The notes under the pieces are model-generated. The model was given only the letters and a program-made list of their open reading frames with translations, was not told where the DNA came from and ran no database searches. This document shows positions 1-63,000 of a DNA stretch of 64,000 nt, piece after piece. The stretch comes from Ginglymostoma cirratum (lineage: Eukaryota). Within the stretch, counting starts at the first letter, position 1; every line of letters begins with the position of its first letter. Made by a program: the position numbers and the translations under genes. Location: the NCBI GenBank assembly GCA_024137785.1, contig JAHRHZ010000029.1:15578725-15642724 (forward strand), given 5' to 3'.

Positions 1-84
1 CTAACTCACCAGTAAACATTCTTTCTGTTATCTATCAACATGTCACAGTGCCTTGGTTAAACTATCTAACAACACTTTCATCAT

Positions 85-12200: not shown

Positions 12201-15200
12201 CCCTGACTCAGCTGCAGAGAAGGTACACCGGCAGCCTCATTCATACAAGACCACTCACTGAACAGCTCAGGAATCTTCTAAAGGTGTAGATCAGGTGCCT
12301 GGAAGACTCAGTGCCGTGGGCGCCTCCCAGAATCAATGTGATCTTCTGCATGTTCCACAGTTTTCTACTGAGAACAGTTCAGTCTGGACCCCAGTGAGGA
12401 ATGCATCCACCCCTCAGATAAGGTGTTGGAAACATTCAGTACCCACAAGGCTGGTGAGGTGAATGTCAACAAGAGAACGCTCCCACTCATCCATCCACTT
12501 GCTCTAAGCAATTCATGTAGGACCCCATCATCACCAGATGCAATGGCTCATTGTTTGATGGGTCTGTGCCCTGAGGTTGTAAGCTGATTAGGAGTTCAGA
12601 CTAAGTGACCTGGTTACGTTAGGGAACAGACATTAGAAAGATCCAGAAGGGTAGAGGATTGATGGACCACAGAAAGATGTACTATTTAGCTTGGCTAACA
12701 TAATAAATTATTTAGACTTTATGTACATGCTTGTTAAAACAATGATGATAGTTACTATTTTTTCACAGATAAATGTATTTCTTTTATTTGTGCATTCCTA
12801 GTTCCTTGCTTAACACAACTAAACTTATCTAAACAACACAGTGGTTCCATTAACGCTCTAACTGGCACTGTTGCCTTTGCTCTCAAACACTCCTAAGTAG
12901 TGTCCCCCTTGTGGCCACGGGGAAGGTGAAGACAGGTTGAAGACATCTCCCTGAATATATGGCTGTAAAGGTTTGGGGGTTTAGCTTCATTTTGCAGGGA
13001 CTCCCGATTAGACTGCATCACCTGCATCCCTGCCAGGGCAGCCTTCCTTGCTTGGACCCAGGACACAGAACACCCGGCTGAGGGGCTGAGGAATCAGAGG
13101 ACGAGGAGATCCAATCTAAATGCACTGAACCCTCGTCTCTTCCTCGGAATGCAAAGGTCCTTGGGATAGTGTCCTCATCACTGGACAGTGTGTGGTGCTG
13201 GAGTTCATCTTCCATATTGTCGCTTGCCATGAAATGTATGGAACCTTCCAATCCCATGATCTCCAGGATCCAGAAGGAAAATAGTAGCCAGTGTGTGAGG
13301 ACACCCTCACCACCAAATTGACTCCTGGGAGGTTCATGGAGTAAAGAAGAAGCATTTTTTTTATATTTCTGATTCTTCATGTTGAGTGCAGTACTTCTCT
13401 AATCTGATCCTTCTTTGTCCCTCCAATATAGACTTGCACTGTGACATCTTAAATTCTAAACCTATGTCTATACATATATTAAGACGTTCCTTTGACTGGT
13501 GTCAGCTGCAAGCTAACCTGTCTACTTTTGCATATTCAGACTGATGTTATGCACCAAAGTGTGTACGATTTCATCCATGTTGATGATCGGCAGGAGTTCC
13601 AGAGGCAGCTACACTGGGCCATGAATCCACCCCAACAGGCATCTGGGCCAGATCGTCCAGGACAGGGAGCTAATGGTGCGTACATTCAGTCTGCTTTCTC
13701 ATTACCCTCAATGCATCATGGAGTAGGAGAAGTGAGCTCTGCCCTTGTACAGTAGCAGTAGGACAAAATTGACTTGGGGTTGTATGAACAGGTGGTGCTG
13801 TACCTTCTTGCCTTACAGCACAATTCAGTAATTCTCTAAACTGTATCAGAGGGCATTAATACTCCACAGCATAGTGTTGGATTGCAGTCAAATATAGACC
13901 AGACCAGGCCAGATTCTCCCATTTAATGAACTGGTTGGAGAGTATAATCTTAACTTTGCACAATAACAGAAAATTGATGATAGTCCATCAGCAACCCTTT
14001 CGACATCTCCCAATTTTCAATTCCATTGATTTCAATATTTATAATGTAGCACAAAGTCAAAATTCCACCTCAGACTTGGGTCTTCCATCAATGTGGCAGC
14101 TTTCATTGCTGTGTTTCTACTGCTGGCCTGCAACTTAACAAATTAGTTGAATAGAGTTCTATCATTTTTCATGTTTTCATGTTCACAAAGGCTGGAATAT
14201 GACCTACGCTCTGTAAATATGGATGATTTTGATAAAAATGCAACAGTAGAGGACTGACATATTGCCAGCTTTATAATAGGTTATTCTTCCTCACTGAAAG
14301 TCTCTATATTGTTATTAGCTAGCTCTATCTCTGACCCAAAATGCCATCTAACAAAATCCCCACAGTATTAGAGCTCTATCAAGTTATTTTCCCTTCACTA
14401 AAACCAACCACAGAAAATGCAGCAGTGGTGTGTTTTCGAATTTCCAAAACCTGGTCGCTGTGCATAAGACTCCTTGTGGGCAGTCCAGCCTAGTCAGATT
14501 AATCGCGAAAAACAATGGGTGAACTTGCAAGTGACCAAGTGTAGAGGTAACTAGTTGGATAAATATTAAACTTTGTTAGACTTGGTATCATCTTTAGCTT
14601 AGAGGTACGCTTTCACCACTGAGGTAAAATGTTGTAGGTTTGTGTCCCATTCTAGAGAATAAAATGCATAATCTGGACTCACACTCCACTATGTTATTGA
14701 AGGAATGCTATATAGTCAGAGGTGCTGTCTTTCAGATGGAAAGTTAAAGCAAGACAGCATTTGCCCTCTGATCTGGACTTAAATATTCTGATGACCTACT
14801 ATTGTGAAGAAGAGCACAAGGTTTCTTCCAGTGTTCTGCTTAATATTTACCAATATCATGCGTCAGATTAACTAGTCAAGATCTCATTGCTGTTTGTGGG
14901 AGTTTACTATGAGTAAATGGCTTCCCAAAATTACAATAGCAAATATACTTCAAAGTTACTTCATTGGTTGGACAGCACTTTGGAGTAAGATAGAAGTGCA
15001 AGTTTTCTTTTCTTCCTTTATAGGAGTGTTTGGAACATTCTTAAGAGATGGTAAACAGATGGAGTTTATTATTAAATGGAATTCTATTTTTGTCAAGAAA
15101 ATTCAAGTACTGGTTATATTGTTTAATATCAATGATATACATAACTGAGATAAGTTTGGAAAGCCCAAAATGCAGTATCAGCTTGGCTCAGTTCATAGCA

Positions 15201-18200
15201 CTCCAGCCTCTGAGTTAGAAGGTTGAGAGTTCAAGCCAATCACAGGAGTGGAGATCATAGTCAAGTCTGATATTTCAGAACTGCAGTCCTACTCATCTGC
15301 CTGATGGCATATTAAGCCAAAGTCACATTAGTATGTCCAGATGCATATCTGTCCAGAGGACTATCTGAAGAAGAGCAGGAGGAGTTCTCTCTTTGTCATT
15401 TTCTCTCAATCAATACTGCTAAACACTGGTGAATTGATAATCACCTTTGCTGTTTATGAAATGGATGCAGTGATTGGATTCCTTGCATGGAGGCTATGAA
15501 GTACGTTCTGAAAGATATGATAAGGCTTTAGTATGCAATGCTAGTTTTCAGTCTTTTTCTAGGCTTCCAAGATATATTGAATCACCTGAAGTCTCCTATT
15601 GCTTTGTTTACTGCTATATCACTTGTAGTGGATATGACTATGACTTGTTTCTTGGTGAGAGATTAGTTATTCTGAAGCTAACTTTACTTTGTCAAATTTC
15701 AGGTGATGAGTATCGGGGCTCTTTCAAAGTTCATGACCCAAAAGTTCTGCCACCAGAGTTTTCTCCATTTTTGAACCGTTGTTTCATCAGCCGAGTGCGA
15801 TGCCTGTTGGATAGCACATCAGGATTCCTGGTATGTAAACTGTTGAGGAAAGACCTGAAGAGAAAGCTACTGCCTTCAACTGATTTGACATCCAAGGGCA
15901 GGCGCAGGGACCTGATCGCCATGACAACATTGTGAATCATCATTGGCAGGGGCCTCCAACATGACACAGCCTAAGTATAACATTTCAGTGAGAGGAGTGG
16001 TCTTGTCATGAGCGTATATCTATGTCACTATGTGCCAACCTTAGGTTCCAGTCTGCCCCATCAGAATTGTCAGGCTGGCATCTACCAGTCTCAGAGGCAT
16101 TTGGGAAATCTCTCCTGCCACTAATTCTCTAGAAAGATGACTTTTATGGCCTTCTCAGCCCTTCCACCTCCCCACTCCAAGGAAAGGCCCACAATTGCTG
16201 CCAGCAAGCTTGTTATGCCTCCTTTCTCTCAGCCTTCCAGCCTCTGAAGTTCCACTGGCCACATCCAGCAGACCTGAGACATGGATCTTCAGAGTTAGAG
16301 AGTCCTCAATCTGGCACTTCCAGATAAATGGACTCAGTCGGAATGAGTGATGGCTCACCTACTCCTCCACATGAACCAAACCATTGGAAAATGCACTGTT
16401 AGGTTAGGGCCTGGTCTGGTCATCTGCCTTCATTAAGAATACTACAGCTGATAGACCTGGAGAGCCTTCTGGTTCTCATGCTTCAGATAGGAACAGGAGT
16501 AGACTATTCAGACACTCAAGCCTATTCTGCCATTCAAATGGATCATGGTCGATCTATATCTTAATTCTGTCTACTTGCCTTGATTTTAAGATACCCAATA
16601 TCCTTACCCAACAAAATAAGAATGGATCTTCAAATTTTCAATTGATGTGGCTTCAAGAGAAAATCTGGGGAGAAATTTCCAGATTTTCACTACCTTTTAT
16701 CTGAAAAATTACTTCCTGACATCACCCACATATGGCTCAGCTCTAACTTCAAGGTTATTCCCCTCTCCTCCCTGATTCTGGACTCCTTTAGCAAAGGAAA
16801 CTGGTTCTTGATTGCTACCCTGGCAATTCTTTTAATATTTAAATATGCTAATTTGATCACTCCTTGATCTTCTAAATGCAATGGAATGGAAGTGTAATTT
16901 CTTCACTGTTTCAACCAGTCTTTGCATTCATTATTTTATTGTCTGCTCTGCTTGGTTCTTCATCTTTTCACTCGTCTCACATTCTCACGGCAGACGATGC
17001 AGTTCCAAGGCAGACTGAAGTACCTCCAGGGACAGAGGAAGAAAACTGGTTCTGGTTCCAACCTTCCACCACAGCTGGGTTTATTCTGTATTGCCGTGCC
17101 GCTGTTGTTCCCTCCCATCAGCGAGATGAATCTGAAAGGCTTGCTCCTCAAAACCAAGCACAGGCTCGACCTCAGTCCTCAGGCACTCAATGCAAAGTAA
17201 GCGACAAGTTCCCTAACTCAATCATATTAGAATGATCAGCAATGCACTTCATGAAATGGCAGTGGAAGCAAATAAACTAACTTTCAAAGTATATGCATGA
17301 GAAAGACAATTTTGCAGTGCTCTAAGGAAAGAGTGGAGGAGTAAAACAAACTGCATAGTGTCTTCAAGAGCACTGGCACTAGGATGATGAACACCTTCAG
17401 TGCTTTTTGATTCCATAATTAGTCAAACAATGTGCCATTGAGATACCTGAACTCATGTTATCTGGATTATTAATTGAAGTCTCTGAATTACTGGCTGAGT
17501 GGCCTAGCCATCATTATTACTATTATTTTGGTAAAGCCTCTGGATGCAGCAGGCACTCAGTAACCAACTAAGAACAATATATTTCCCAGCTTCAAGTCAA
17601 ATTACTTCAAAATGCATGAATTGCAGCTGCCTCCATTACCCTCCACCTCCTCCATCCCACCCTGGTCTACTTTCACTGATCACAAGCAAAGCTATTTAAA
17701 TTCAGGAAAACAACCTGTAGGGAGTCTTCAAAGGTTAGGCAATACCAGATGGCCTTTAGGGTAAACCAAAAGGAGTTCCTCTTCTGAACTCCTTTCTCAT
17801 CCTGCCTTCATTTCTTCCTAACCCACTTCTCACATCCCCTGCCCCAAACACAACTTTGGGCCTGGTTTAAATTGGAGAAGCTCCTTCTTATAACTCAAAA
17901 CAGCTCAGCCTCCGACTTGGGGAAGACTAAAGATCAGAAATGAAATTCTTAAGACCTGAGACCAGTGGATTTTTGTCGAGTAAAGAATCAAAGAGTACAG
18001 AATAAGTGCAGGTAAATGTAGTTGATCAAGTCTGCCACAATCTTAACAAATGTTAGTAAAGACTCAAGGGGCTGAATGGCCTATTTCCTTTCCTACATGG
18101 TCAGAGGTCTTTGCTCAGAAGCAAACTTGATACCAATTGAATGGAGATGAAATAAGAATTAGCATATACATTTTATTTTCAAATGTCACTGCTGGGAGAT

Positions 18201-21200
18201 AGTATTCAAATTTGGCAATGCTACAAAAGAGGCTTGGGGATGTTCTTTCTGCTGGCTGTTGAAGAATCTGCCCCTGTTCTTCTGCTTTCTCCTGCTCAGT
18301 CTTAAACTCCAATTAAATCAGATGTGGCTATTAGGGCAATGAGCTGACTGATAAATGAAAACAGAAGTTCTGTGTTTTTATTAATAGGGACAGACAAAGC
18401 AAAATTCAGCATCCAGTTTCCTCGCCCTTCCTCAGTGCCTCCCCCACCCCTGCAAATACCCACCCTCAAATTCACTATCTGACCTCAAACAATCAGGGTT
18501 ACTTCAGGACACAAAGCACTCCATCCAATAATTGGGTCAGAATACAGAATGTCAACACACATGATGCCAAATCGAGTGCTTCCAGCATTATGTTTTTGTT
18601 CTGAGAATATTTAGTTCCTGAATTCTATCCCCACCATCAAAATACTTTTGAGTTCCACCGAGCAATACAAGTCCAGCATTTCCATCTGCTGGTAAACAGC
18701 CGGAATTACACGTGCACCTAAATCCCTTTTATTGTTCTCTTAAACTGCAAAGCCAACAGTCATTGTACTTGGCAATATTTTTAAATCATTTGGAACAGAC
18801 ATTGTAGTTTAAGGAAAGTGAAATCAGCCCGATTTTGCCCCAGCTTCTGATCATTGTATTTTTCAGTTAAGCCAATGTATTGCTTTATCCCTAGATGCCT
18901 TCAAGAAGGTGGTTTTTGTCACAATATTAATTTGCGTATTAGATACTATCTAGTACTTGATATTGAATATGGTACGGTACCCCGAAATCCACAGAGGATC
19001 ATCTGATCTTTGGGTGTAAAGCAAGTTTAGTACATTCAGCATTTTTTTCATTTATTTATTCACGGGATACGGGCATTGTTGGCCAGGCAGCATTTATTGC
19101 CCATCCCTAATTGCCCAGAGGGCAGTTTAGAGTCAACCAGATTGCTGTGGGTCTGGAGTCATATGTAGGCAGACCAGGTAAGGATGGCAGTTTCCTAAAG
19201 GGCATACGTGAACAGATGGGTTTTTCTGACAATCGACAATGGATTCACAGTCATCATTAGTCTTAATTCAAGGTATTTTATTGAATTCAAATTCCACCAT
19301 CTGCCATGGCGGGACTCGAATCTGGATCCCCAGAAAGTTATCTGGGTCAACAGTCCAGCGATGATGCCACTAGGCCATTGCCTCGCTCTATCATTAAGAA
19401 CCAGCCTGCATTCAAAGTTTTGTTAAATTTTTATGCAAGCTAAATCTGGGATTTTCATTGCTGCTCTTTCAACCTGAGATGTGATATAAATGAGTCACCT
19501 TCTTTAAACACTGCAGTTCGTGGTGCGGATACAGTTAAGTACCTTGTAACATTCTTACTAAATTGACAATGAATACAATTTGTCAAAGCCAGTCTGATTT
19601 TTACATTGCATGGAATCTTATAGTATATACAATGCATTACTAGCAGCTAAGTTTCATTGCCTATGCCAGGCATCAAATCTTCCAGTGTACCTTGCACAGG
19701 ATGTCATGCTTTGGCACTTAGACCTGTGAGAGTGATAGTTTGTCATGTGCACAAGAGAAGATAATGTAGAAAATGCCTGAATTATAATAAAGCTCAAAGA
19801 GACCCTGAGCCAATTGCAATTGATCCCTCATTCAACAAAGGCTAGATATATCCTTGGAAATTAAGGTCATTTAGATCTTTTCTCTGTCCCAGTAAGGGCC
19901 AATGGACTCTCATTCGAAGGTTGCCCATTGCCTTTCCTACTGGCTTGTTTTTGACAGGGGCACCTGAGGAAATCAAAGTCGACAACTACAGTAATCAGGA
20001 TCCCCCGAGTTCATATGGTATAGTAAGTGTCCCAGAAATCTCCCTTATACTATTTGATCTTCCTGTTGCTACAAATTCTTTCTGTTTTATGGAACAGAGA
20101 AACAGGAATAGGTATTTCAGCCCGTAAAGCCTGTTCTGCCATTTTGTTAGTTTGTATCTTAACCTTCACCAATCCTGGCTGTGTAGTCTATAATATCTTT
20201 GTCTAACAAAAACCTGTTGTAATGATCCTAGCTGATATTATTACTGGACAAGCAGATCTGTTCTGAGGAAGGGTGACCAGACCCGAAACTTTAACTCTGT
20301 TTTAACCTTCACAGAAGCTGCCAGACTTGCTGAGCTTTTCCAGCAACTTTGTTTTTGAAGCAGATCCCAGACCGAAATCTAGTTGGATTATCATATTTTG
20401 TTTTTTTTGTATTTAACTAGCTTGCTTTTCACCACAAGCACACAATTCTGTAGATATGGTTCAATCAGAAAACAGAAGTTTAATATGAGAAAGAAATTAA
20501 GATAAAGCAGAATAAACCCAGCTGTTTATGTGAAATACAATTTGAAAGATTTTGAAATACAGAATAAAAATACAATCCCATCTATTCCAACACCATCATT
20601 TACAGCACTCGGTATCAGAGAGAGTCCCCTCCTTTCATACATCTAGAGGTTTGATGTATCTTTTCGTTCTATTCTCAGCTTTAGGAGTTTGATAGTCTTT
20701 TCCTCAATTATTCGCACAACTGAGCATAGAACTTCTCAACTTCAAATAACCCCTTCAGGGTTCAAACCAAACATTTTGGTTTGAAGCCTTCAACTAAAAT
20801 GGTGCCATTGAGGTAACCTATTTCCTAACTGTTCTAAACTGATTCCTTTCTCCAGGAGAAACTGTTTCTTACATCTTACGTCAGCTAGGACCTCTGTGAA
20901 CTGAAACCAAAAGTTTTCCAAGCTACAGGCTTTTCCTCTAAAAAATCAATTCCTGATTCTTCTAAACCAAATTCAAGCTACTGCTCTTTTGTTTCATTGT
21001 AAAACTCGAGCAATGCAAACAAATACACATTACCACTCAGGAACTCTCTCTCTGAGATAGCACGGTGTGGAGCTGGATGAACACATCAAGCCAAGCAGCA
21101 TCAGAAGAGCAGGAAAGCTGACGTTTTGGGCCTAGACCCTTCTTCAGAAATGGGGGAGGGTAAGGGGATTCTGAAATAAATAGGGAGAGAGGCGGACAGA

Positions 21201-23959
21201 AGATGGATAAAGGAGAAGATAGGTGGAGAGGAGGCAGACAGGTCAAAGAGGCGGGGGTGGAGCCAGTAAAGGTGAGTGTAGGTGGGGAGTTAGGGAGGGG
21301 ATAGGTCGTCCAGGGAGGACAGACAGGTCAATGGGATAGGATGGGGCTGGTAGGTAAGAGATAGGGGTGGGGCTTGAGATGGGAGAAAGGACAGGTTAGG
21401 GAGGCGGGGACAAGCTGGGCTGGTTTTGGGATGCGGTTGGGGGAGGGGAGATTTTGATGCTTGTGAAGTCCACATTGTCCTTATTATTAGTCCTTAATAT
21501 TTAATCTTTTTAGCTCCTGGGGTGCAATACCCCGAACTGAACACGGTGCACTAGATGCTGTCTGAGCAGAATTTTATATGAATTTAACATAACATCTACC
21601 CTCTAGTGATGCAATGGTTCCATTTTGTTGCAGGGGTAAAGCAGCTGCAGGATGGTCAGACGCAGAACTCCGAGCAAGGTCAAGTTGCCACTACCTCCAC
21701 TTCACAGACATGCTGTACTGCACAGAGAACCAAATACGAAGTAAGTTCCCCCCAAACACCTCCACCTCACTATTTCTCTCTCCTTTTAAAGCTTGCTCAT
21801 TTAACTTAGTCTTTGCCAAATTATTGGTCACCTATCCTGATGTGGCGAGGTGTTATATTACGGTTGATTACATTTCTATGAAACATAATGGCACTTTTTG
21901 ATCGGTTGAAGGCACCATATGAGTATAAAGTTGTTGTAGGTTAGAATCTGCACTCCACAATCAATGGTGTGAAATTTTCCAAATTGTTTAGAAACAGACT
22001 AAGCAGAGTAAAGTTGATCAAATGTTATTCTGAGAAATGGTTTATGTTCTCACAAACAGTGATGAATGCTGAAGAAAAGGGTGTCACAGTCTTCAGAGTA
22101 CTCACAAAGGAAGGCCAATGGGTTTGGCTTCAAAGTAATGGCCATCTGCCCTACAGGAACAAAACCCCAGAAGATGCCACGTCACCTAAAGAGGAAATCA
22201 AGTAAGTCTTATTTCACAATTTTTGTATTATTGTCATTCACTGACTATTAATTTTTTTTATTTTAAATGTCAAAACGTACATTTTGTTTTCCTCCAGTGT
22301 TGCTGTCAGAAGCATTCTGGAGATTAATCTTTACATTCTTGGGATCTCCAGGGTAATCTGAGACTTTTGTGCATTTATTACCAGTTCCTTTATAACCTGC
22401 AACTCTATTTAAACTACAGTCAGTACAAATTGTACTCTTACCTCACTTAGAAGAGGATTATCTTGGTTCATTTATCTATTAATTTGATCAATAATATAAT
22501 CCTATTTTCTTGTATATCTACAGAGCTTTGTTCATGCACTCAGTGCACAGAAATGAGTTGTGAATGAGGGAGTAATCCCAATTGCTTCTGCCCAGAAGAG
22601 TACCTAAAATGCTATAACCAGCCACTTTAAAATTGAAGTTAATGCAAATAGGTGAATGCCTAGATTCATGGTTGATAATCTTCAAAGCCATACTCTATGC
22701 ATGGTCTAATAATATTTCTCACTTTCCACAGGGATGTAGAGAGATCCAGAGAGGAGCACCTGAGGAACCAGTCAAATCCTGACCAGACTGCCAGTGCCAA
22801 CAGACTAGTGTACAGCAACTGCACTGAAACACCTCTGCAGTTAAAACATCTCTATGAGCAGCATGCAGAAAAAGAAGGAAGAGAGGAGAAATATGAGACC
22901 ATTAAAAGTGATGGTGGCATCAACCAACATGAGCCACTTAATTTTTGCACCTCATTTCCCAGGGGTCCAAAAGTTACCATGGCAGATGATTTATGGGGTC
23001 CAGAGTACTCCAGAGGTCTCTCGAATTTGCAGCCACCAAAACAAATGGAGAAGATAAGTAACATTCCTGGTCGGGAGGCCAAACCCTTCTGTGGCAGAAG
23101 TAGACTGCTGTCCGAGCCCCGGCTCAGATGTAGCACCCAGGCCTCCAGCTTTCAAGGTATACCCCAGAGCTTCAGGAGCGTTGGAGAAGAGGTGGAGCAG
23201 AACCAGCCCTATGGCAGCTTGCCATACACCAACCTGGATGGCTACCCGTCTGAAAACTGTAAGACTGATGATGCCAGCTTTGTGGCTAGCAGACCAAAGG
23301 AGCACCCCACTGCGGGGTACTGCAACAGTGCAGAAGTGTTTCTGGGAGTGCACATCAAAAGTGAATACAGTCCTGACTCGCACAATGAACTGGACGAGCC
23401 ACTGGGATCTCCAAGTCATCAATGGGCTGACAGTGGAGAAGTTGGGCAGAAAATGGCAACAAGCTTCCCAGGGCAGCCTCAGGTGAAGTGCGACCCCAAC
23501 GCGCTGGAGCAGTTGCCACCCTGTGAAAAACTGAAGACTCCTCTGCTACCCCCATTCTGCAGAGCCAGCATGGTCAAAGGCAACAGCTTGTGGATGACAA
23601 GCAGCACATGTAACCACAACAGGCTGTTGAAAAATGACATAGACATGGCTCATTTCAGTCCACAGAGGGCTGTCCAGTCCCGTTGCACTCACCATGATCA
23701 AGTCGCAGACTGTTTACAGGCAGGTGCCTTCCCACAACGTCCTATCCAGGACAAGGGCTTAAGTCAGGAGACACACAAAATACCGCTGCAGTTCAAAGGT
23801 CATGACCTAATCCACACAGTCATCAAACGCGAACCCTCACTCTCTCCTCCTTGGTCTTGTGACAATCCACACAACATACAGTCAAGCCTACAAAGAAATA
23901 TGCCCAGTTGTTTGTTAAATTCATTGACTCACAAAATTACACAGAACACATATTTGTAA
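3139..23959 (+). CDS. AHRR: AHRR, partial gene span: join(3139-3228,13540-13675,15703-15830,16994-17196,21634-21740,22060-22201,22732-23959); 5' bHLH exons are outside the window
   Basis: All introns are GT-AG and phases are compatible; 2034 nt = 677 aa + TAA. AHRR-type PAS-A motifs ([31 protein letters not shown]), C-terminal SUMO-type motifs, no Q-rich activation domain, and position directly upstream of EXOC3 as in human 5p15.33. Confidence 0.88.
4655..5150 (+). mobile_element. CR1 LINE 3' end
   Basis: [26 protein letters not shown]-type C-terminal ORF2 coding and (CTCTATGA)n tail. Confidence 0.85.
5410..6290 (-). mobile_element. L2-type LINE remnant
   Basis: Minus ORFs [22 protein letters not shown] and [18 protein letters not shown] (post-RT region). 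Confidence 0.75.
6945..7295 (+). mobile_element. Deu-domain SINE (SacSINE1/AmnSINE-like)
   Basis: CTGCACTGTTGAAGGTG..CTACATTACAACAGCGACCACACTCCAAAGTAAATTCATTG. Confidence 0.6.
8673..9797 (+). mobile_element. Probable solo LTR inserted into a Deu-SINE (8300-8672 and 9798-9890)
   Basis: TG...CA ends, internal AATAAA, 3' motif CTTGTCCAGTATTAGCATCAGCTG shared with the element at 20218; flanks join to give a Deu-SINE tail. Confidence 0.55.
8828..9168 (-). mobile_element. tRNA-headed SINE with L2-like tail, nested in the LTR
   Basis: Minus-strand TGGCCTAATGG / GGTTCAAATCC boxes; similar copies at 19050-19385 and 63530-63800. Confidence 0.7.
9990..10745 (+). mobile_element. CR1 LINE 3' remnant
   Basis: Degenerate LVQPQLE..FW..LERVQK.FTRM motif region. 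Confidence 0.7.
10874..13400. mobile_element. Possible decayed PIF/Harbinger DNA transposon
   Basis: Plus-strand Myb/SANT-like traces at 11440-11680; minus-strand [14 protein letters not shown] resembling a HARBI1 N-terminal motif near 13260-13320; boundaries uncertain. Confidence 0.35.
13540..13675 (+). CDS. AHRR: AHRR exon, PAS-A ([31 protein letters not shown]...)
   Basis: ttcag acceptor, gtgcgt donor, 136 nt, phase 0/1. Confidence 0.92.
14580..15560 (+). mobile_element. Two tandem Deu-SINE copies (about 14580-15020 and 15180-15560)
   Basis: GAGGTGCTGTCTTTCAGATG, GAAGAAGAGCA and CATTGCTGTTTGTGGGAG motifs with tRNA-like heads. Confidence 0.65.
15703..15830 (+). CDS. AHRR: AHRR exon ([27 protein letters not shown])
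   Basis: tttcag acceptor, gtatgt donor, 128 nt, phase 1/0; LDSTSGFL is AHRR-like (AHR has LDNSSGFL). Confidence 0.93.
16485..16880 (-). mobile_element. CR1-type LINE 3' remnant
   Basis: ATAGGAACAGGAGTAG..CCTATTCTGCCATTCAA end motif. Confidence 0.55.
16994..17196 (+). CDS. AHRR: AHRR exon ([14 protein letters not shown]...[17 protein letters not shown]), end of PAS-A and start of PAS-B-like region
   Basis: ggcag acceptor, gtaagc donor, 203 nt, phase 0/2. Confidence 0.93.
19050..19385 (-). mobile_element. tRNA-headed SINE with L2-like tail
   Basis: High similarity to 8828-9168 (GGCAGCATTTATTGCCCATCCCTAATTGCCCAGAGGGC). Confidence 0.75.
20218..21053 (-). mobile_element. Probable LTR remnant related to 8673-9797, inserted in a CR1 remnant
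   Basis: Reverse complement ends CTTGTCCAGTAATAATATCAGCTAGGATCATTACA. Confidence 0.45.
20259..20357 (+). mobile_element. 99-bp PLE 3'-end insertion with hammerhead motif
   Basis: 9-bp TSD AAGCAGATC (20250-20258, 20358-20366); CTGAGGA-A-GGGT-GACCAG-ACCC-GAAAC at 20263-20289. Confidence 0.75.
21054..21477 (-). mobile_element. PLE 3' fragment
   Basis: Reverse complement matches 49910-50335 (NVDFTS.KI end, pyrimidine-rich UTR); hammerhead GAAA mutated to AAAA. Confidence 0.85.
21634..21740 (+). CDS. AHRR: AHRR exon, PAS-B-like ([35 protein letters not shown])
   Basis: ttgcag acceptor, gtaagt donor, 107 nt, phase 2/1; aligns with AHR exon 8 (G.ILGY.E.[24 protein letters not shown]). Confidence 0.88.
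22060..22201 (+). CDS. AHRR: AHRR exon, PAS-B-like ([48 protein letters not shown])
   Basis: aacag acceptor, gtaagt donor, 142 nt, phase 1/2; aligns without gaps to AHR exon 9 (MIKTGESGMTVFRLL.K..RW.WVQSNARL.Y.NGRP). Confidence 0.88.
22732..23959 (+). CDS. AHRR: AHRR last coding exon, C-terminal repression region
   Basis: ccacag acceptor, phase 2, 1228 nt to TAA (ORF 22697..23959); contains EPLNF, IKSE, VKCD and [12 protein letters not shown] motifs. Confidence 0.9.
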
Positions 23960-24204
23960 TTTTTGTTTTATAATGAAATTGTTTTACAGTTTTTATTTCA
24001 AAATGTCTTTGCTCTGAGAATGTTTAATGAAAATATTTACTTTGCTGTAAACCCTGATGTATTACCTATTGCCATCTATTTTGCAATTTTGTATGAAGAC
24101 TTTCATTATAATTTGCCTATGATGTATTGTGTATGAATGTAGCAGTCTTGGGAGTACATGAAAAACATTGAAATACTTGATATTTATGTCTGAAGAATCC
24201 ACAG

Positions 24205-29989: not shown

Positions 29990-30500
29990 GTACAAGCTCC
30001 AACCCGTTCCCCAGCTGGCCGGAAATGCACTTGCTCCGCGGTGGTGCATGCTGGGTTATGTAGTTTCCCCGGTGGGACAGGTAGACTACACTACCCGTCG
30101 GGCGGCGCGGTTTTCAGCCTGGCCGGTTGGAGTTTCGTGCCGTCGCGGGACACGGTTTGAATGCTTATTGTGTTCGATTCTGTTATTGTTTTCCCGCCGT
30201 GCCTCTGGCGCTGCGAGAGGCCGCTGTCCCCCTGGCAGGGTTAGGAGGATTCGGAGCGGTGAAGGTGGTGCTAGGCCCGGGCCTGGGGCCTGTTCCTGCC
30301 GCTTGGAGTGCAGAGAGGCGTCAAAAGGCAAGAAACGGTCAAGCGAGCCCGGGTGTGGTGTTATTCCGTTCCCAGGGTCGGGCAGTCAGTGACATTTGCG
30401 GTTCGGGGCGCATTTCGTTTCAAATTAAGAGTGCGGTCTGGTGACATTGCAGTCGCTGGCTCTGGGTCGGTGTTCGTGCGGATCGGTGGGAGTCTGTGCT
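29990..30500. promoter_or_regulatory. CpG-rich promoter / non-coding first exon region of EXOC3
   Basis: Only CpG-dense GC-rich block in the window, about 5 kb upstream of the EXOC3 ATG exon; ETS-like CCGGAAAT at 30019-30026 and two ACTACA-n3-CCC motifs. Confidence 0.8.
30043..30096. promoter_or_regulatory. Back-to-back ZNF143/THAP11 (SBS) motifs
   Basis: Minus strand 30043-30064 reads ACTACATAACCCAGCATGCACC; plus strand 30085-30096 reads ACTACACTACCC. Confidence 0.65.
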
Positions 30501-33500: not shown

Positions 33501-34273
33501 TACTTGGATAAATTACTGATTGTGATAGCGCAAGGAGCAATTTATGGTTTGGAGTAGATCACAAAGTGTACTGAAGATTGAAAGTATTGGTTTAAAAGAA
33601 TTTTTCTATCCCGTACAGACGACATCTGGACAGCTACATGAATAGGAAAGATTTAGAGGAATATGGGCAAAACGTGGGCAAACGGGACTAGTTTGTTTAG
33701 TTTGGGAAATTTGGATGAGTTGGGCCAAAGGATCTGTTTCATTGTGGGATATTTATAATGGATTCCATCACACAAAATGATCTTTCGTGACTTATCATAC
33801 GATTAGATACTGAATATTATAGGTAAACATAAAGACCCCATTGTTCTACTGGATCATAGAGCTCCTCTCTCAGAGGAGCTGGTTGCTTTATACTGAGGGT
33901 CAGCACACTTCAGGGCAGGGGAGTGGTTGAGAAGGACAGTCTTTCACGGTAACCTCAGTCAGCGGAGCAATTGAATGCACGCTGTTAGCATCACACTGCA
34001 TTGTACACCAGCCATCCAGCTGAGCACAGACAATGAATATTATACTGCGACATCAAATACAAAAAAGTAAAACATTTTAACTGCATAGGATTGGTAGATG
34101 CGGCTACTTACGGTATACAGATCCCTTCAAGAGTAGTTCTTAATTTGCTATTTTACTGTATGAGAATATATTTCTTCTAAATTTGGAAGCAAGACTTTTC
34201 TTCCTTTTATAATCTGCTAAACCATCCAGCAGAGGCCATTACTTGACTGGGAGTGGTGAGATTCCATAAGCTT

Positions 34274-34847
34274 TTTGTGAAAGTGGAGCAGCTAGGTCTT
34301 TTTATATATAGTTTTTAAAATCCTTTGCTGTCTGTGAAGACATCCTCTGCTTAATACGATGTGTAGATGAAGACATCTTGAAGCCTGTATTCGACTTGTG
34401 GATGGTTAGAAAGGTTGAAAAACCTGGAAGATTTCCTGCAACCGCTTTTGTTTTTGGCTGCAAACTGACATTGAAGTGATGTACAATCAGATTGTTTTAG
34501 CAAGTGTCTAAATACATGAATAAATCATCATCATGAGCTCCAGAGATAGTAGGGACCGCAGATGCTGGAGAATCTGAGATAACAAGGTGTAGAGCTGGAT
34601 GAATACAGCAGGCCAAGCAGCATCAGAGGACCAGGAAGGCTGACGTTTCCGGCATCGACCTTTAGCATCCCAAAATCAGTTGCAGAAAATCTTCCAGGTT
34701 TTTCAACCTTTCCAACCATCCACAAGTCGAATACAGGCTTCAAGATGGCTTCATCTACACATCGTATTAAGCAGAGGATGTCTTCACAGACTGCAAAGGA
34801 TTTTAAAAACTATATATAAAAAGACCTAGCTGCTCCACTTTCACAAA
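34274..34847. repeat. 177-bp inverted repeat: 34274-34450 and 34671-34847
   Basis: Manual alignment shows 6 mismatches and no gaps. Confidence 0.95.
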
Positions 34848-34918
34848 GGGTCTAGGCCCGAAACGTCAGCCTTCCTGCTCGGCCTGCTGTGTTCATCCAG
34901 CTCTACACCTTGTTATTG
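34543..34918. mobile_element. Composite PLE insertion: inverted PLE ends enclosing an inverted copy of flanking host DNA
   Basis: 9-bp TSD TGAGCTCCA (34534-34542, 34919-34927); PLE arms 34543-34662 (-) and 34846-34916 (+). Confidence 0.85.
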
Positions 34919-35535
34919 TGAGCTCCAATTCAGGTTAGGAAATCGAATAGGTTTCCAAAACTGTGAAGGCACTTCTTTTTTATCATAATGATAATTATAA
35001 TAACCTGATTTCAGACAGCTTGGTTACAGATTGGCTTCGCCAAATCCTAGAATCTACGGAATTATCACTGGACTTAGCTAAAGCCCCAGCTAAGATTCAT
35101 CAAACTGTCAGACATGGCTTGTCTATTGGAATCTGTATCCAAGTGACAGACTAAGTTTCTGGTCAGCTGGTCAATCATCAGTGGCAATATCGAGTAAGGA
35201 ACAGTGTGCAATGTCAATAATTAAAAGATTAAAGGCAACAGAATAAATTTTTTCCAGCAATTTCTGTTTTTGTTTCTGGCATCTGCGGTTCTTTCAATTT
35301 TTTTTAATAAAATCCCACAAGATTACTAAACTGCCTGTACAAATGGAGAGTAACTTATCTAAATAACTAAACATGGTAGATTGGACAAAATATAAATTTA
35401 AACAAAACATTTTAAATGTGTCCTAATGCCAGAAATTCAATACTTTCTTATTAAATTGGGAGGGGAGTATTTAAATGTTAACTTGCACAAGCATCCACAT
35501 ATTATTTTTTAGGATTTACAGTAAACATTTTGAAT

Positions 35536-35679
35536 ATGGAAGAAACTGACCGGGAAGCTGTGTGGACAGCTGCACAGCGAGTGGCTGGGATGCTGCAGCG
35601 ACCTGATCAGCTTGATAAGGTGGAGCAGTATCGCAGACGGGAGGCTCGGAAGAAGGCCTCTGTGGAAGCCAGGCTGAAG
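35536..35679 (+). CDS. EXOC3: EXOC3 coding exon 1 (exon acceptor at 35513, ATG at 35536)
   Basis: MEETDREAV...SVEARLK, gttagt donor. Confidence 0.94.
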
Positions 35680-41600: not shown

Positions 41601-44600
41601 AATATTGAACCGTATATTATGATTGCGATTCCCCAAATGCTCTCCCACTCTGTTTTCCATTTAGCCTGCCTCATTTCCTAGAACCAGACCCAGCACAGCT
41701 TCCTCCCGAGTATGACAGGAAATGTACTGTTCCAGAACATTTTCCTGCACGCATTGCAGGAATTTCTCCCCTTCTGTGCCCACACTCTACCTTTTCCCAG
41801 TCTGCCCTAGGATAGTTGAAATCACTGTCCTACTTGCCCTGCAGGTTTCTGTAATCTGCCTACAAATGCTGTGTTCTACTTCCCACTATTGGAGAACTGT
41901 AATAAAAACTCAACAATGTCACTGCTTCCTTCCCATTTCTCACCTCTAACCATATAGATTCTAACTCAGGAACTACATCCCGTTCAAGGGCAATGGTATC
42001 ACCTTTGACCAAGATTGCAACACCTCCCTTTTTACACACCCTGTTTCTACTAAAAATCTTATGGAATATTAAGTATCTAGCCCAGTTCTAGCTTGAGCCA
42101 CATTTCTGTCAATGCTATTATGTAATATTCCTTTTGAGCAATTTCTGCCTCCTGTTGACTAATTTTGTCCACTATCATCTGTGTATTTACATACATAGAG
42201 TTTTGCCCAGTGGAAGGTCACCATTTCTTTGTCCACTGTCAACACTCAAGTCTTCCCTCATTTCCTTTTCTCCATTTCCCATCTTCTCTTTTGCCCTCAC
42301 TGATACTTCCAAAACCAGGTCCATTAGTTGACCCACCAGTCTGTCTTACAAGTTTAAGCCCATCCCCACTATACTAATATACTCTGAGACAAGGGATTAG
42401 GTAGTTTAACAATGGATTTAAGTAGCTTAAATTTGTGACATTGCAACAAGCTGTGTGCAAAACCTGAGCACAGTGTTCATCTTTCAAAACAAATTTATAT
42501 CTACAAAGAATTGACTGTAGAAACATTGGATTTGGCTGTTTTTTTGTGGAAAAAAAATCTAAATCCTTTGCATTTAATACATACATTGGTATAGCCCAAT
42601 GGAGAAGATTACTTCTCTTTTTAAAGAATTGTGAATCAATTTTCTCTATACCAGAGCAATTGTTTCTATCCCCTTCAATTGCATACTGGCACAATAAGAC
42701 AGAAGCCTTGGGGAAAATTCCTAGACTCATGAAATAATGGACAGGTTGTTTGTAAGCAAGAAGGTTTGCTTCCACTGGGAATAGATACTATGTGAGGGTT
42801 CAATTTGTGTTGTTGAACATGTTTTTCTTTACCTATATATGTAAGCCTACAGAAAGAAGCTGTTTGGATCATCATGTCTTTGCTGGCTTCAGAAAATAGA
42901 TGCAATGGGCTACACCTTAATATTCTGTGTAAAGACATTTCCTCTAACCTCTCTTGTCACTATCTTTGTAAAGAATTTGTAAAACACAACTTTATTTGAA
43001 ATGATATTCAGTGAAGAGATTATTTCACTATTTGTATACTGTTTTGCAGTATTACTTTTGTGACATGACTGTACATCAGTTAACATTCTACTTCTCTGGT
43101 TTTATAGTTCCAGAGATTGTGCAAGAAGCCTGTGAACTGATAGAACGAGGAGAACTACTTGCAGCACACCGAAAACTGATGGATCTGGAGTGTTCCCGTG
43201 ATGACCTCATGTACGAGCAGTACCGCATGGACAGCAAGAACACACATGATATGAAACTCATCCAGGCTTACTTTACTGAGGTGCAGAACCTCTCCGAACA
43301 AATGGGCAAGCAGATCTGGATGCTGGTGCAAAGGGCTTCGGTCACAGTGCGCAGTGACCCAGCCCAGCTGGTTTCAGTGATTCGAATAATTGAGAGAGAG
43401 GAAAAAATTGATAAGCGGATGCTTGACCGTCAGAAACAGACAGGATTCATACCACCTGGGAGACCAAAACGGTGGAAAGACAAGTTGTTTGCTGTGCTGG
43501 AACAGACTGTTGCCAATCGGATTGAAGCCAGTCAGTCTGATACACGGGAGCAAGACAAAATGTGGCTTGTGCGTCATCTGGAGCTCTTGCGAAAGTATGT
43601 TCTTGAGGACTTGCTAGTCATGAAGAGCTTGATGGTGCAGTGTTTTCCACCTCATTACAACATCTTCAAAAAACTTCAGAATTTGTATCACCAGGGGCTA
43701 ATAGCGCGTGTAGAGGAACTAGCCTCTGAGGATTTGGAGGCCAATGAAATTGTTTCCCTTCTGACATGGGTTCTAAATACATACCACAGGTAAGAGTTGA
43801 ACATGTTGGTGTGTAATACCATATGGGGTGTGAGTGTGCAATTTTTCTCACATGATTTGTCCAGACCTGTTAAGCTCCCATTTTGACCTGTCATCAGGGA
43901 ATTGGAAGAAACAAACATTTTCTAATTGGTGGGAGAAGGAAAGAAAAATTAGAGGCAAGTTATTGTGGAACCAGAAATATGTATGTGGGTACATTCAGCA
44001 AAACATTTAGATTACAGGTTGATCTGGGTCGTTTACTGAGGATTTTTTTTGACATATCAGCAAGAAATACTGGAAATACTTCTGGCCAGCATTTGTGGAG
44101 AGAATGGATGAATTAGCATTATTGATAAACTGAAGGAATTTGCAAGCATTTTAAAAAAAGAGAGCACAGGGAAAATGCTTCTGTGACAAAGCGGTTTTTT
44201 TTTTCCTATCATGATGTTAGCCTGAAGCAATAGGAACCAAAGTAAAATAAAGCAAATGTATTAACTGCTATGAAACACTGGCATGCTTATCATAGTTGCA
44301 AAAGGTGAGGTAGGAATGAGTGAAGGCATGAAAACCTGAAAAGTAACAATGTCTCCACCGGCCCAGTTTTTTAGGAGATAAGTGTTCCAGTTGACAGCAA
44401 GAAGACGGACTTCAAGATGCTATGCCTCATGAGGTATTTTTGACTCCCAGTCGAGGTATTAAAGCCATACTTTAATTAGAATTTTAGGAATCCTCATGGT
44501 TTCTGTTGAACTAATTATCAGCTGTGCCATCTTCTTCCAGTGAAGAAAACTTGCACTAAACTTGTATTTATTTTGACTAGTATTTTTAATCAAGGCTAAG

Positions 44601-47600: not shown

Positions 47601-50600
47601 TGTTGTGCAGACTTGTGTTCCCTACTAATTGCACCTCTAGCCAAGCTGGTCCAGTTCAGATACAGCGCTGGTACCTACCCATCAATTGTGGAAAATTGAC
47701 ATAGGTAGATTATGTCCATAAAAAGCAGGACAAAGCCAACCCAGCCAATTTACCACCCCATCAGCTTACTCTTGCTCCCTCCAAAGTGTATACCATCCTG
47801 CTTTGAAACTGTAGATATTCCTTCAGTCACTGGGTATAAACACCTGGTCCCCCTTTCTAACAGCATGATGGCTTATCTGCACCCACTGAACTTCAAGTGG
47901 TGCACAAAAGCAGTTCACCATCTTTTCGAGGATTATTGGGAAAAAGCAATAAATGTTCGCCGAGCCAATGAGACCCAAATCATATGAAAAGAGAAACAAA
48001 AAGTTGTATTTTTTTTTTTTGAAGGTTTTAAAGAAGCTGAGAAGATTTGTCAACTAAGATTTTGCATTGCTCCAAAACAGTGATAGTCAATTTGTAGAAA
48101 GATCTTGCAGTATATTGTTGTTCTTCAAGTTAACTCAGTGCATTTGAGTTCTCATGCTTCAGTTGTTTTAAGGCAATTGAGAATATGATGAAAAGTTTGC
48201 AGCTGAATGATGACTACTTTAATCTTTGCAGTCCAACATAATTGGCTGGCTACGGAAAGCACTGGAAACTGACAAGAAGGATTGGAAAAAAGAGCAAGAG
48301 CCAGAAGCAGATCAGGATGGATATTATCAGACCACATTGCCAGCTATTGTGTTCCAGGTATTCTTAAACTCCTCAATTATATCTTTTGCAAATACTGTGT
48401 ATGCATTTTATTATGATTTGAGGCACTCTAACGTGGTTAAATTGTTACCAGTGGCATCCAAGACAAATTTTAGCTTTCCATATAATACTGTGTTTTTGTA
48501 GGCTGAACCTCCTCAACTTGCTTCCTTCTGTAGAGCAGAACTATGACAACAAAACTAAGTTGTCCTGAAAGATGTAAAACTGTTATTGTACTAGTAGGAA
48601 CTCTTGTCTTTTAATGTCTAGTCTCGAATATATTGAAACTCTTTCACATCCTCGCACTTCCTATCAGATTTGCCCTTGACATTCCTGTTCACATTTATTA
48701 TGGAATGTCCAGACATGTCACACTGTAATTATACCCTCCAGACAGTGGAGGCACTGCATCATCAAACTAGTGGAGGGTGGCATTACATTGTGACAAGTTT
48801 ATACTTCAGAATCATTATACATCTGGGTATGGGAATTGATAATGGAAAACGCTGACATTTTACATAAAAATAAGGGTAGAATGCATTTGTTCAAAGTGGG
48901 GAATGAAATATGTTGGGGTTCTCTGATGATCCACTTATATCCTGCATTTTAACGACATCTCAAATGAAGTCTACATTTAATCTTCACTGCTTGTGGGCAA
49001 CACTGAAAGAGACCAGCTAGTTTGTAGTAAAATTCTAAATTGTCTAGTATTTCTTCACTGTTAATACCTTTCATTTAAAACATTAAATTTTACTGTTAAA
49101 TTGTAGGATGATCACATTAATTATAATCAAGAATTTCAGTGCAACTGATATTTTTAATAAAGTGAGTAATTCTCTCAATATTAACAGACTATTCAAACAT
49201 AGCATGGCATCACTACGTCACCTCATTTAAGAGGAAGTGAAGTTGGAGTAATGCGTTTTCTTCAAAATGCTTGGCTTTGTGGAAACGTAACTTTAAAAAT
49301 TTCACCTTTTTTATTAAAAATAAGTCAGATCTCCACACCTGTTCAAGAGTTGTGCTCCAAACTTGACTGATTGCATTATTCATCGGGAGATTTTGCCTCT
49401 ATTTTTGGATGAATTTTAATGGCAGCTTTGACTGGCTGTGACTTTGACCACAAGAAATCATGCTTTTATTAAGAAAGTGTTGTTTCCTTAGCTAGAAACA
49501 AATATTTCTTTCCAGAGTTAGGTTGCTTCTCTTTTATTCTTACGCTGTTCCAAAGCTTGCAGTCTTGTTTTAAAACGAATGGAATGGCTCTTCTCCACAT
49601 TATGATTTGTTTGCAGAACTAATTTGAAGCAGCTGTTAATGCTGCTTGTGGGAGTAGTGTTGTGCAGCATTAATTGTGCTATTCATGAACACCCTGGAAG
49701 ATAGTCCTGGAAGTCTTGTTTGGGTTTGTCTGAACTCCTGCTGTGTCAGTGATAGGGCATAGGCAACCATTTTTTGAGAGTAACCTTAAGCCATTCCTCA
49801 GACGACATGTCCATCCTGGGCCTCCTGCAATGCCACAGTGATGCCACCCAAAGGCTGCAGGAACAGCAAATCATATTCAGCCTGGGAACCCTGCAGCCCA
49901 ATGGTATCAATGTGGATTTTACAAGCTTCAAAATCTCCCCTCCCACAACCGCATCCCAAAACCAGCCCAGCTCATCTCCGCCTCCCTAATCTGTCCTCCC
50001 TCCCACCTCAAGCCCCACCCCCATCTCCTATCTACTAACATCATCCTGCCCCCTTGACCTGTCCGTCCTCCCTGGACTGACCTATCTCCTCCCTACCCCA
50101 CCTACACTCACCTTTACTGGCTCCATCCCCGCCTCTTCGACTTGTCTGCCTCCTCTCCACCTATCCTCTCCTCTATCCAGCTTCTATCCGCCTCCCCCTC
50201 TCTCCCTATTTATTTCAGAACCCTCTTCCCCTCCCCCATTTCTGATGAAGGGTCTAGGCCTGAAACGTCAAGCTTTCCTGCTGCTATGATGCTGCTTGGC
50301 CTGCTGTGTTCATCCAGCCCCACACCTTGTTATCTCGGATTCTCCAGCATCTGCAGTACCTTTTATCTCTGATACAATTTTAAACCCTTTCTGCCATGCA
50401 CATACAAGTAAGTAACATTGTGTGTATGCTGTATAGCAGTATCTTCTTTTTTTAAAATAAAAAATAAAATAGGAAAAAAGAAATGGATAGATAAAACAGC
50501 CATCCTGATCAGACCCTTTGCACTGATATGTAGTTTTCTGATCAAGGAAAACAATCGACAGAGGTGGCTGTTTTTGGGGCTATCAGAGTGTGATTGATGT

Positions 50601-60084: not shown

Positions 60085-63000
60085 ATTCACAGGGATATTG
60101 TTATTGCTGGGAAGACAAACTTTCATTGTCCTTGAAGAGGTGTTGATGAATTGCCAGGCCCTTTGAGGCACAAGTGTCACCCACGTTGCTGTGGTTCTTA
60201 AATCACAAACCAGCTGAAGGCAGATTTTTTTTTCCCTAAAGGATATTTGTAAACAGAGATAACAAGGCATGGGGCTGGATGAACACAGCAGGCCAAGCAG
60301 CAGCATAGGAGCAGGAAAGCTTGACGTTTCGGGCCTAGACCCTTCTATTTGTAAACATTTGTTTTTACAACAATCCAGCAGATACATGATCACAGTCATT
60401 GATACTAGCTTTTTAATTTGTGCATGAGTGTATTACTGACAGGGCTAGCATTGTTATTCATCCCTAATTGCACTTGAGAAGGTGGTGGTGAGCTAAATTC
60501 TTGAATCACTAATACTTATAGGTACACTTATGGTACTGTGATGAAATTCCAGGATTTTCACCCAGTGACAGTGAGGGAGGAGTAACATATTTCCATAGCA
60601 GGATGACAGTGTCAATACAGAACTACAGCACAGCAAAAGGTCCTTGGGTCAATCAAAAACAACACCCAACTATTCAAATCCTATTTTCCAACATTGCCCC
60701 CAGAGCCTTGTATGCTTTGCTATCACAAGTGCACATCTAAATATTTATTAAATGTTGTGTGGGCTTCTATGTCTACCAACTTTACAGGCAGTGAGTGCCA
60801 GATTCCCACCATTCTTTGAAAAATATTTTCCTCACATCTCTAAACCTCCACTTACCTTGAATTTATGCCCCTGGTCATTGTTCCTTCCATCATTGGGAAA
60901 AGTTTCTTGTCTACCTTATCTATACCCCTCATAACTTCTTATATGTCTATAAGAAGACAAAGGAAGAGTAGGCCTGCCATGACACAGAATAGGATGGCTG
61001 ATCTGACATTTCTCATGTCCACGTTCCTGCATTTTCCCTGCTACCCTGGATTACCCCTACTCACCAAGATTCTATCTATCCCAGCCTTAAATATATACAA
61101 CGACTCTGCCCTCACAGCTCTCAGAAGAAATTCCTCCTCATCTCAGTCTTAAATTGGTACTCCTTATTCTGAGTTATGCCCTCTGGTCCTAGACTCTTCC
61201 CATGAGGGGATACATCCTCTCAGCATTTACCCTTCAAGCCTCTTAAGAATCCTATATCTTTCAATGAGATCATCTCTTATTCTTTTAAGCTCCAATCAGT
61301 AGAGCCCTAATCTGTTCAGTCTTTGCTACAAGAGAATCTTTCCGTACTAGGAATCATCCTACTGAACCTCTATCAATCAGGTCCACTCAGCTCCAAAGAG
61401 TCAGTGCATTAGCAACTTATGGTACACTTTGGCAACCCATTCACCAGTGACAACCAAGGGACTGTTTCATCTTGGATACTGAACTTTGTTGTTACAGTTG
61501 CACTCATACAGACAGGCATGAAGCATTTCATTGTATTCCTGACTTGTCTGGTAGATAGTGCACAGACTGTAGCAAGGGACGTGTTACTTCAGAATTCCCT
61601 GCCTCTTGACCTGTTTTTGTTGCTCTGGTGTGGCTGATTCAGAGCAATGTTTTTAAGCTGGAGATTAAGTGTCTCATGTTGGAGATAGTTACTGCCTTTT
61701 CCTTGTGTGGCACAGATGTTACTGACACACAACCTGTGAACATTTCATTTCCAACTTTATCATCGTGGGATGACTATAAACAAAGCAGCTAAAGATGCTT
61801 CAGTCTGGACACTGCTATTGTTGATTATCTAAAATAAAGTTCTTAGCTGCTGTGTTTGACCATGGCAGGTTACACCAAGTGGCAGAATCAGACAGAGTCA
61901 TCATGGATTCACAAAAAGCAAATCATATTTGATAAATATACCGGAATTCTTCAAGGCAGTAACTCGGGGTTGATGAGAGGGAGCCAACAGATGTGGTTTA
62001 TTTGTAAAAAGTCTTCTGAAAGTCCAAGAGATGAGCGTGTAAAATTAAAGTACATAGGGTTGGGGCGAGGGGGAGTGTAGTGTATGAAGATGGATCACGA
62101 ACGGGTTGGCAGACAGGAAACAACGAGTAGGAATAAATATGTGGTTTTCTCAATGACAGACAGTAACTAGTAGGGTACTGGCAGGAACAGTGCTCGGACT
62201 CCACCATTCACAACATTGATTTGGATGAGGAAACTAAATGTAATATCTTCAAATTTGCAGATGATACAAAGCTGCCTGGAAGGGTGAGGTGGGAGGAGAA
62301 TGCAGAGATGCTTCAGTGTGATCTGAACAAGCTGAATTAGTGGGCAAATATATGATAAATTTTATTACTGTATTTGCCAATGTGACATTATCCACTTTAG
62401 GAAGAAAAGAAATGGAGATGCAGATTATCCATACAGCAACAGGACATGGGTGTCCTTGTACACTAGTCATAAAGTAAGCATGTTGGTGAAGAAGATAAAT
62501 GGTATGTTGGCCATCATAGTGAGAGGATATGAGTACAGGAGCCAGGATGTCTTGGTGTGATTACACAGGGCTTTGGTGAGACCACGCCTGGTATTTTGTG
62601 TGCAGATTTGATCTTCGCTGAAGAAGGATGTCCTTGCTATAGAGGGAATGCAGAGACTGACATATGAGAAGAGGTTGAATCAGTTAGGATTATATTCACT
62701 GGATTTCAGAAAAACAAAGGGAGAATCTCATAGAAACCTATAAAACTGTAACAGGATGAGACAGGGTTGATGTAGGATGTTTTGGATGACAGGAGAGTCC
62801 AGAACCAAAGGTCACAGTCTATGAAACTGGGTATAGACCGTAATCTATAGAAGCAGAATTAAGCCATTCAGCCCATCATGTATGCTCCAGCAATCAATTG
62901 CGGCAGACATGTTTCTCAACCCCATTTTCCTGATTACTCTGATATCTGTCTTAAATACACTCAATGACTTGGCCTCCACAGCCTTCTGCAGCAAAGAGTT

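Follow-up and report, generated by a model that had tools for sequence, protein, structure and literature searches.

In an intron of the plus-strand gene EXOC3/Sec6 we found a 376-bp insert, enclosed by 9-nt target site duplications (TSDs), that is made of two head-to-head ends of a Penelope-like element (PLE) and an inverted copy of 177 bp of local host DNA. We think it probable that a single PLE integration produced this structure, with cDNA primed at both nicks and host repair bridging the two cDNAs with local DNA, a reading drawn from one locus and two species. The inverted copy of the local flank between PLE arms, seen at a single locus, appears to be new and to be a variation on known processes. 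Coordinates are those of the window, i.e. the whole 64,000-nt stretch of DNA that was analysed.

Layout of the insert and its empty site

The donor at 34274-34450 (plus strand) and its captured copy at 34671-34847 (minus strand) form an ungapped inverted repeat of 177 nt with 171/177 identical positions (E 2e-81). Self-comparison thus confirmed the original prediction of an inverted local copy within TSDs, and the predicted distance of 83 bp to the insertion site was measured as 83 nt from the donor end to the TSD (host spacer, 34451-34533, plus strand). The TSD, TGAGCTCCA, stands on the plus strand at 34534-34542 and 34919-34927; as an estimate of chance, a 9-nt repeat with 3-nt slack occurred at 3 of ∼3000 random position pairs. 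Next to the left TSD lies PLE arm 1 (34543-34663, minus strand, 121 nt), which has a tail of 31-37 nt at its outer end, and after a short filler and the copy comes PLE arm 2 (34846-34916, plus strand, 71 nt), which is tail-less, carries a 14-nt internal deletion and has 2 nt in common with the copy. Arm 2 had been predicted to adjoin the TSD; the right TSD is indeed there, but two extra bases (34917-34918) that had not been noted precede it. We rejected a TSD of 11-13 nt altered by CpG decay: in the contig of a relative the left piece ends at 34533 and is joined directly to the right piece at 34919, which makes 9 nt plus two bases the simpler reading. An open frame through the arms was too short to count.

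No third copy of the donor was found in the window (best other match E 1.3), and depth in the host runs was 11-47 over the copy versus about 1e5-2.5e6 over the arms. Within the window and the host runs the 177-bp segment is hence not a dispersed repeat, which would have refuted the original prediction, and self-comparison and contigs mark the donor as single-copy host intron DNA.

Arm 1 is readable to 34663, so that the filler, predicted as 8 nt, is present but can be read as 7 nt at 34664-34670; it may be untemplated, PLE-derived or donor-derived with a slip (5/6 letters of donor 34456-34461 plus a 5-nt slip in an A-run). The predicted AA microhomology was recovered at the copy/arm-2 junction as 2 nt, extended to 3 if a slip in the T-run is allowed, and microhomologies of 2-3 nt are near the chance level. 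Four private substitutions of arm 1 fall within its inner 14 nt, a clustering at the filler junction (4/14 versus 2/57, p 0.012, post hoc) that is also seen for substitutions of the copy (2/8 versus 4/169, p 0.025, post hoc). The left junction is messy as well, with one 5-mer occurring three times in 50 nt (post hoc).

Fourteen runs from two organisms, the host and a relative, cover part of the region, and four of them were compared on 34451-35480. A junction was counted as bridged when at least 31 letters were present on each side, and the left TSD/arm-1 junction alone qualifies: contigs of host runs X11 and X14 cross it with 0 differences and reach 38 and 42 letters into the arm. Two junctions are spanned by too few letters to qualify: arm-1/filler/copy, where the shorter side has 23 (X11 only), and arm-2/TSD, with 27-29 (both host runs). 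The copy/arm-2 junction does not appear among the listed contig pieces of the host runs, and X14 cover is missing beyond about 35325, neither of which was taken as evidence of absence. An 831-nt contig of X11 (34648-34847) holds arm 1 and the copy with donor letters at 34748 and 34792 and then departs from the stretch; the donor itself lies outside the compared stretch, and the path of this contig past 34847 is a deduction. The donor letters are likely due to graph collapse; had the 220-nt loop between the repeats been inverted, this contig would have the same appearance.

In the relative, both runs (two samples from two studies) gave one 1175-nt contig each that represents the empty site. These contigs pass from 35274-34919 straight into 34533-34451 and on into the donor, without intervening letters, so that there is one TSD, one donor, no arms and no copy. 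The empty-site comparison proposed in the original prediction thus came out in its favour: the relative lacks arms and duplication alike, rather than carrying the duplication without the arms. Of the six donor/copy differences, three could be polarised and three fell outside the listing because a piece end was close by. The relative agrees with the copy at 34748 and with the donor at 34713 and 34792, which places one change in the donor and two in the copy. Donor and copy have diverged by 3.4% (CI 1.6-7.2), and the flanks of host and relative by about 20/635 = 3.1% (CI 2.0-4.8). Since the two values are about equal, the insert is old, and the insertion probably arose soon after the species split; precise loss of the insert in the relative would be compatible with a comparison of two species and no outgroup.

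The arms as ends of a Penelope-like element

Both arms match four further family loci in the window, the longest of which, at 49789-50371 (plus strand), comprises the end of a GIY-YIG open reading frame, an untranslated region, a hammerhead-like core and a tail. This sibling opens with 53 codons, for which 82 protein matches were obtained, and the 53-aa piece aligns with the C-terminus of GIY-YIG domains. Its 49789-49947 portion is 20/42 identical to the end of P0089, a protein of 806 aa with reverse transcriptase (RT) and GIY-YIG domains that came from a second search started from one match, which yielded 52 long proteins, most of them RT-annotated and some with GIY-YIG. In Pfam, GIY-YIG of P0089 was above the cut-off and RVT_1 reached 29.4 versus 29.6 bits. 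The 53-aa piece itself had no Pfam match; among 11 of its 82 matches that were scanned, GIY-YIG was detected in 2, both below the cut-off, and the PLE-like protein P0048 had 0 sequence matches in PDB. RT followed by a C-terminal GIY-YIG domain is the order described as defining EN+ PLEs (PMC8557442, PMC11167929). By sequence, then, the arms are assigned to the PLE class, an identity that runs via the sibling copy, the focal arms themselves being free of RT and EN sequence.

The outer ends of family copies form two groups 31-37 nt apart, corresponding to the PLE tail. Arm 1 and two other copies have the long, tailed end, and arm 1 exceeds the short ends of arm 2 and of the copies at 21051 and 60256 by 31-37 nt. 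A tail on one end only is reported as a PLE hallmark (PMC8557442, PMC3846280). TSDs were found at three of the five family loci in the window (9 nt at the focal one, 15 and 12 nt at others) and not at the remaining two. Together, the GIY-YIG sibling, the tail and the TSD support what had been predicted, that the arms are PLE ends.

The other loci differ in form. At 2041-2265 lies a plain head-to-head pair (arms 2056-2250, 15-nt TSD, 5-nt spacer) whose left arm is tailed and whose right arm has only about 60 nt; at 60244-60357 a solo arm of 90 nt (60256-60345) has a clean 12-nt TSD and ends at most 2 nt from the focal inner position; and the copies at 21051-21477 (427 nt) and 49789-50371 (about 580 nt) are longer, 5′-truncated and found to have no TSD. 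In all four compared runs, many short joints (15 listed and 298 further ones) link arm-1 positions to the start of arm 2 (34571-34881), which agrees with inverted pairs, truncated to various lengths, being frequent elsewhere in both genomes; the joined sides are shorter than 30 letters. A second high-copy repeat fragment at 35221-35325 (summed depth up to 490,000) has a 20-nt inverted match to the arm-1 tail and is possibly a decayed relative.

At columns 27 and 74 the two focal arms have letters in common that no other copy in the window carries, and at column 72 they share a minority letter; both span the identical family positions 1-85, and the inner end of arm 2 is at the same family position as that of arm 1, at the base of a hammerhead-like stem and just inside the hammerhead-like core. 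Core-like letters and a stem II fold are present in the sibling at 50236-50285 and resemble a minimal hammerhead motif; an Rfam scan of the window gave 0 matches at the gathering score. Five of the seven window arms stop within about 11 nt of this core (2187/2191, 34663, 34846, 60345), and such clustered inner ends may mark the RNA 5′ end or an RT stop.

Proposed two-ended integration and competing explanations

The 3′ ends of both arms face the TSDs, which is the geometry of cDNA primed from each nick, and only one arm bears the tail. This arrangement supports one of two routes originally put forward, two-ended priming bridged by templated repair. The other, one strand jumping from PLE RNA to DNA and back, fits poorly: arm 2 is RNA-sense on the top strand, and its synthesis would therefore have required either priming of a second strand or an antisense template, the latter having been suggested for rotifer PLEs (PMC3846280).

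In the favoured integration, an endonuclease would nick both strands 9 nt apart, as the TSD and the empty site indicate, and each 3′ end would prime its own cDNA, one from an outer start site (giving the tail) and one from an inner start site. The geometry and the tail are observed, and the priming is modelled on anole Poseidon (PAc), for which in vitro work describes cutting and extension of both strands, two internal sites of RT initiation on either side of the tail and a hammerhead at the ORF start, the protein being predicted to form a dimer (PMC11167929). The outer end is 111-118 nt into the ORF in PAc versus 121 nt from the stem here, and the PAc work is in vitro only and does not extend to the later joining steps (PMC11167929). 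The two focal cDNAs end at one and the same family position, where the hammerhead-like stem has its base, and the RNA 5′ end or a structural stop might be the cause. Because two cDNAs of like sequence cannot pair, a local patch would serve as the bridge: one end may have taken host DNA close by as its template for 177 nt of synthesis, with arm 1 folding back on its own resected strand or with arm 2 invading at the T-run 34272-34276. Both routes fit, and by analogy with L1 and R2 we slightly prefer the fold-back from arm 1. An error-prone host polymerase would finally have achieved joining through the 2-3 nt microhomology.

The closest parallels to the patch come from other retroelements. L1 fold-back duplications at the target, of 52-220 bp, are attributed to self-annealing, resection and host synthesis, and local inverted duplication is reported for 3 + 1 events (0.3% + 0.1%), about 0.4% of somatic insertions (PMC10191854). 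L1 inverted duplications are further described as keeping the TSD, with 2-bp microhomology and small hairpins (bioRxiv 10.1101/2024.12.14.628481). The focal locus likewise has an inverted target-adjacent copy (177), a TSD that was kept and short microhomology; unlike L1, it is a PLE insert and an old germline event with cDNA on both ends and no poly(A). For R2, the cDNA 3′ end is described as priming on itself or, more rarely, on nearby target DNA before joining, but in engineered rDNA insertions with one cDNA only (PMC11371274). The focal patch works like the L1 and R2 events and is neither. Since the same local inverted patch is seen with L1 and R2, the patch step is probably generic host repair, and to call the locus a direct footprint of the PLE mechanism, as had been done, was an overstatement.

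L1 twin priming yields two inverted, non-overlapping segments of one RNA; the focal arms do not fit this pattern, as they cover the same family positions 1-85. Among PLEs, those of Adineta vaga come nearest, with head-to-head pLTRs, TSDs of 8-10 bp, a 31-bp tail at one end and host DNA captured between pLTRs, for which an empty site served as proof (PMC3846280, PMC8557442). Inverted arms, a short TSD, a one-ended tail, host capture and an empty site are all present at the focal locus, whereas the captures described in those reports are unrelated sequence or a gene from elsewhere and the focal capture is the element's own flank, inverted. An inverted flank copy between PLE arms was not found described in the literature covered, which includes few subscription papers.

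Several points count against the favoured integration, among them the near-chance length of the microhomologies. Such a patch is present at only one of the five family loci in the window, and the L1 inverted duplications had small hairpins; here there is none, the donor lying 83 nt from the TSD with a 220-nt loop. Moreover, as to the order of arm insertion and capture, two species cannot prove a joint origin.

The order bears directly on an origin in two steps, which we regard as unlikely. Here the first insertion would have been a simple inverted PLE pair, palindromic at its centre, and a later cruciform break would have trimmed the arms and been repaired with a local copy. Plain inverted pairs do exist, both at 2056-2250 with its 15-nt TSD and as the many short inverted joints in all four runs; both focal arms lack about 10 nt by which the 2056-2250 pair extends beyond the focal inner end, and the messy junction fits ordinary break repair. 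However, the solo copy at 60256-60345 ends at most 2 nt from the same position within its clean TSD, and the stop point therefore needs no later break. The donor/copy divergence is also as large as the species split allows, which leaves little time for a second step, although the interval is wide.

An RNA template for the patch seems quite improbable to us. The PLE RT would, in one event, have switched to nascent EXOC3 pre-mRNA, and the copy would be cDNA of host RNA. When read on from arm 1, the copy does complement the sense strand of the gene, and the host runs contain this intron; a single L1 insertion that brought in local pre-mRNA has been described (PMC10191854), PLEs are described as moving intron-containing host sequence (PMC3846280), and R2 is described as jumping templates (PMC11371274). 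The strand fit does not discriminate, however, since for each strand one of the two priming routes would account for an inverted copy, and in the L1 study the RNA case is 1 event versus 4 fold-backs (PMC10191854).

It is very improbable that the assembly is at fault or that the duplication predates the PLE and has nothing to do with it: the missing copy/arm-2 junction and the donor letters at 34748 and 34792 in host contigs might suggest it, but those letters are expected from graph collapse, the relative is without copy and arms, the A>G cluster described below needs a paired strand in the same molecule, and the six differences, with changes on both sides (34748 versus 34713 and 34792), argue against an artefact, as originally held, because donor and copy have both mutated. 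The evidence taken together leaves one two-ended integration as the reading that we favour.

A>G changes on the intronic hairpin and their meaning

Pfam identifies Sec6 on a later exon (43008-43790, E 6e-46), and we presume from its position that 35536-35679 (plus strand) is the first coding exon of EXOC3, with the insert in the intron upstream of it. Pfam assigned no family to 35536-35679 or to two upstream exon-like open reading frames. A CpG-rich stretch near 30000-30500 lies upstream of this presumed exon. Plus-strand exons farther upstream, at about 13500-23960, resemble those of an AHR/AHRR-family gene in translation; two pieces of them had no match in Pfam.

In a transcript of this intron, the donor forms the 5′ strand and the copy the 3′ strand of a hairpin, with the 83-nt spacer inside the loop; computed RNA folding gave a 177-bp stem with a 220-nt loop (z -31). 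In contigs of both host runs, A>G changes are clustered on the donor arm alone, and the loop next to it is free of them. Where such a contig passes out of the loop and into the donor, it differs from the copy at 18 (X11) and 15 (X14) positions over 112 nt, as against 0 differences over the neighbouring 130 and 134 nt. Four of these 18 and 15 are the expected donor/copy differences; the listed remainder, 8 in X11 and 7 in X14, is all A>G on the sense strand (listed T>C on the copy strand being A>G on the sense strand of the gene), out of 15 A in the 50 nt for which letters are given, and the identity of a further 6 and 4 differing letters near contig ends is not shown. The sites are 34370, 34371, 34381, 34382, 34389, 34411 and 34412 in both runs and 34419 in X11 only (plus strand). 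Position 34408, an A that faces C in the hairpin and reads G, is ambiguous, as graph collapse could explain it; with it counted, 9/15 and 8/15 donor A are changed versus 0/43 loop A (p 5e-7 and 3e-6). The window and the DNA of the relative have A at the A>G sites. X11 also holds a path unedited at 34370-34371, and the molecules are therefore mixed. On the copy arm no A>G was listed in the host-run contigs, which could hide such changes.

Contig totals of 293 and 449 million letters for X11 and X14, versus about 2500 million for DNA runs, suggest that the two are RNA runs. A bisulfite library as the source of the letter changes was rejected, as such libraries give C>T/G>A, the wrong change type. 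A 5′ G precedes 2/9 changed A versus 5/6 unchanged A (p 0.04), and 5′ G depletion is given as an ADAR preference (PMC5625713). Set against the definition of an ADAR hyper-edited hairpin (a cluster of four or more A>G on the strand that is transcribed, a long duplex and 5′ G depletion), both host runs fit. We consider it very probable that the EXOC3 pre-mRNA hairpin is hyper-edited by ADAR, the RNA nature of the runs being deduced as above; as the last step of the favoured sequence of events, the EXOC3 transcript would form the near-perfect 177-bp hairpin and ADAR would edit it. Clusters of A>G in long near-perfect hairpins are the reported signature of hyper-editing, which is described as heavy for Penelope in lizard and is also reported in elephant shark (PMC5625713). 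The hairpins described there are mostly two inverted repeat copies, whereas the focal stem pairs unique intron with its own captured copy. An edited hairpin as a side effect of insertion is known for other retroelements, and we found none described for this one.

How PLE integration is completed and how the inverted ends form are described as still undefined (PMC8557442, PMC11167929). The locus combines an empty site, a tail on one arm, a common stop of both arms and a traceable local template, a pattern that can be counted genome-wide, and it presents a retroelement route from unique intron DNA to a long, seemingly edited hairpin. Whether integration in this family is routinely two-ended, with short run-off cDNAs often bridged with local DNA, we put forward as a tentative and rather doubtful generalisation. 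If it holds, PLEs would systematically generate short inverted duplications of unique sequence and, given very many copies per genome, new ADAR-edited pre-mRNA hairpins, and their junctions would offer natural data on the second, still unsolved half of PLE integration.
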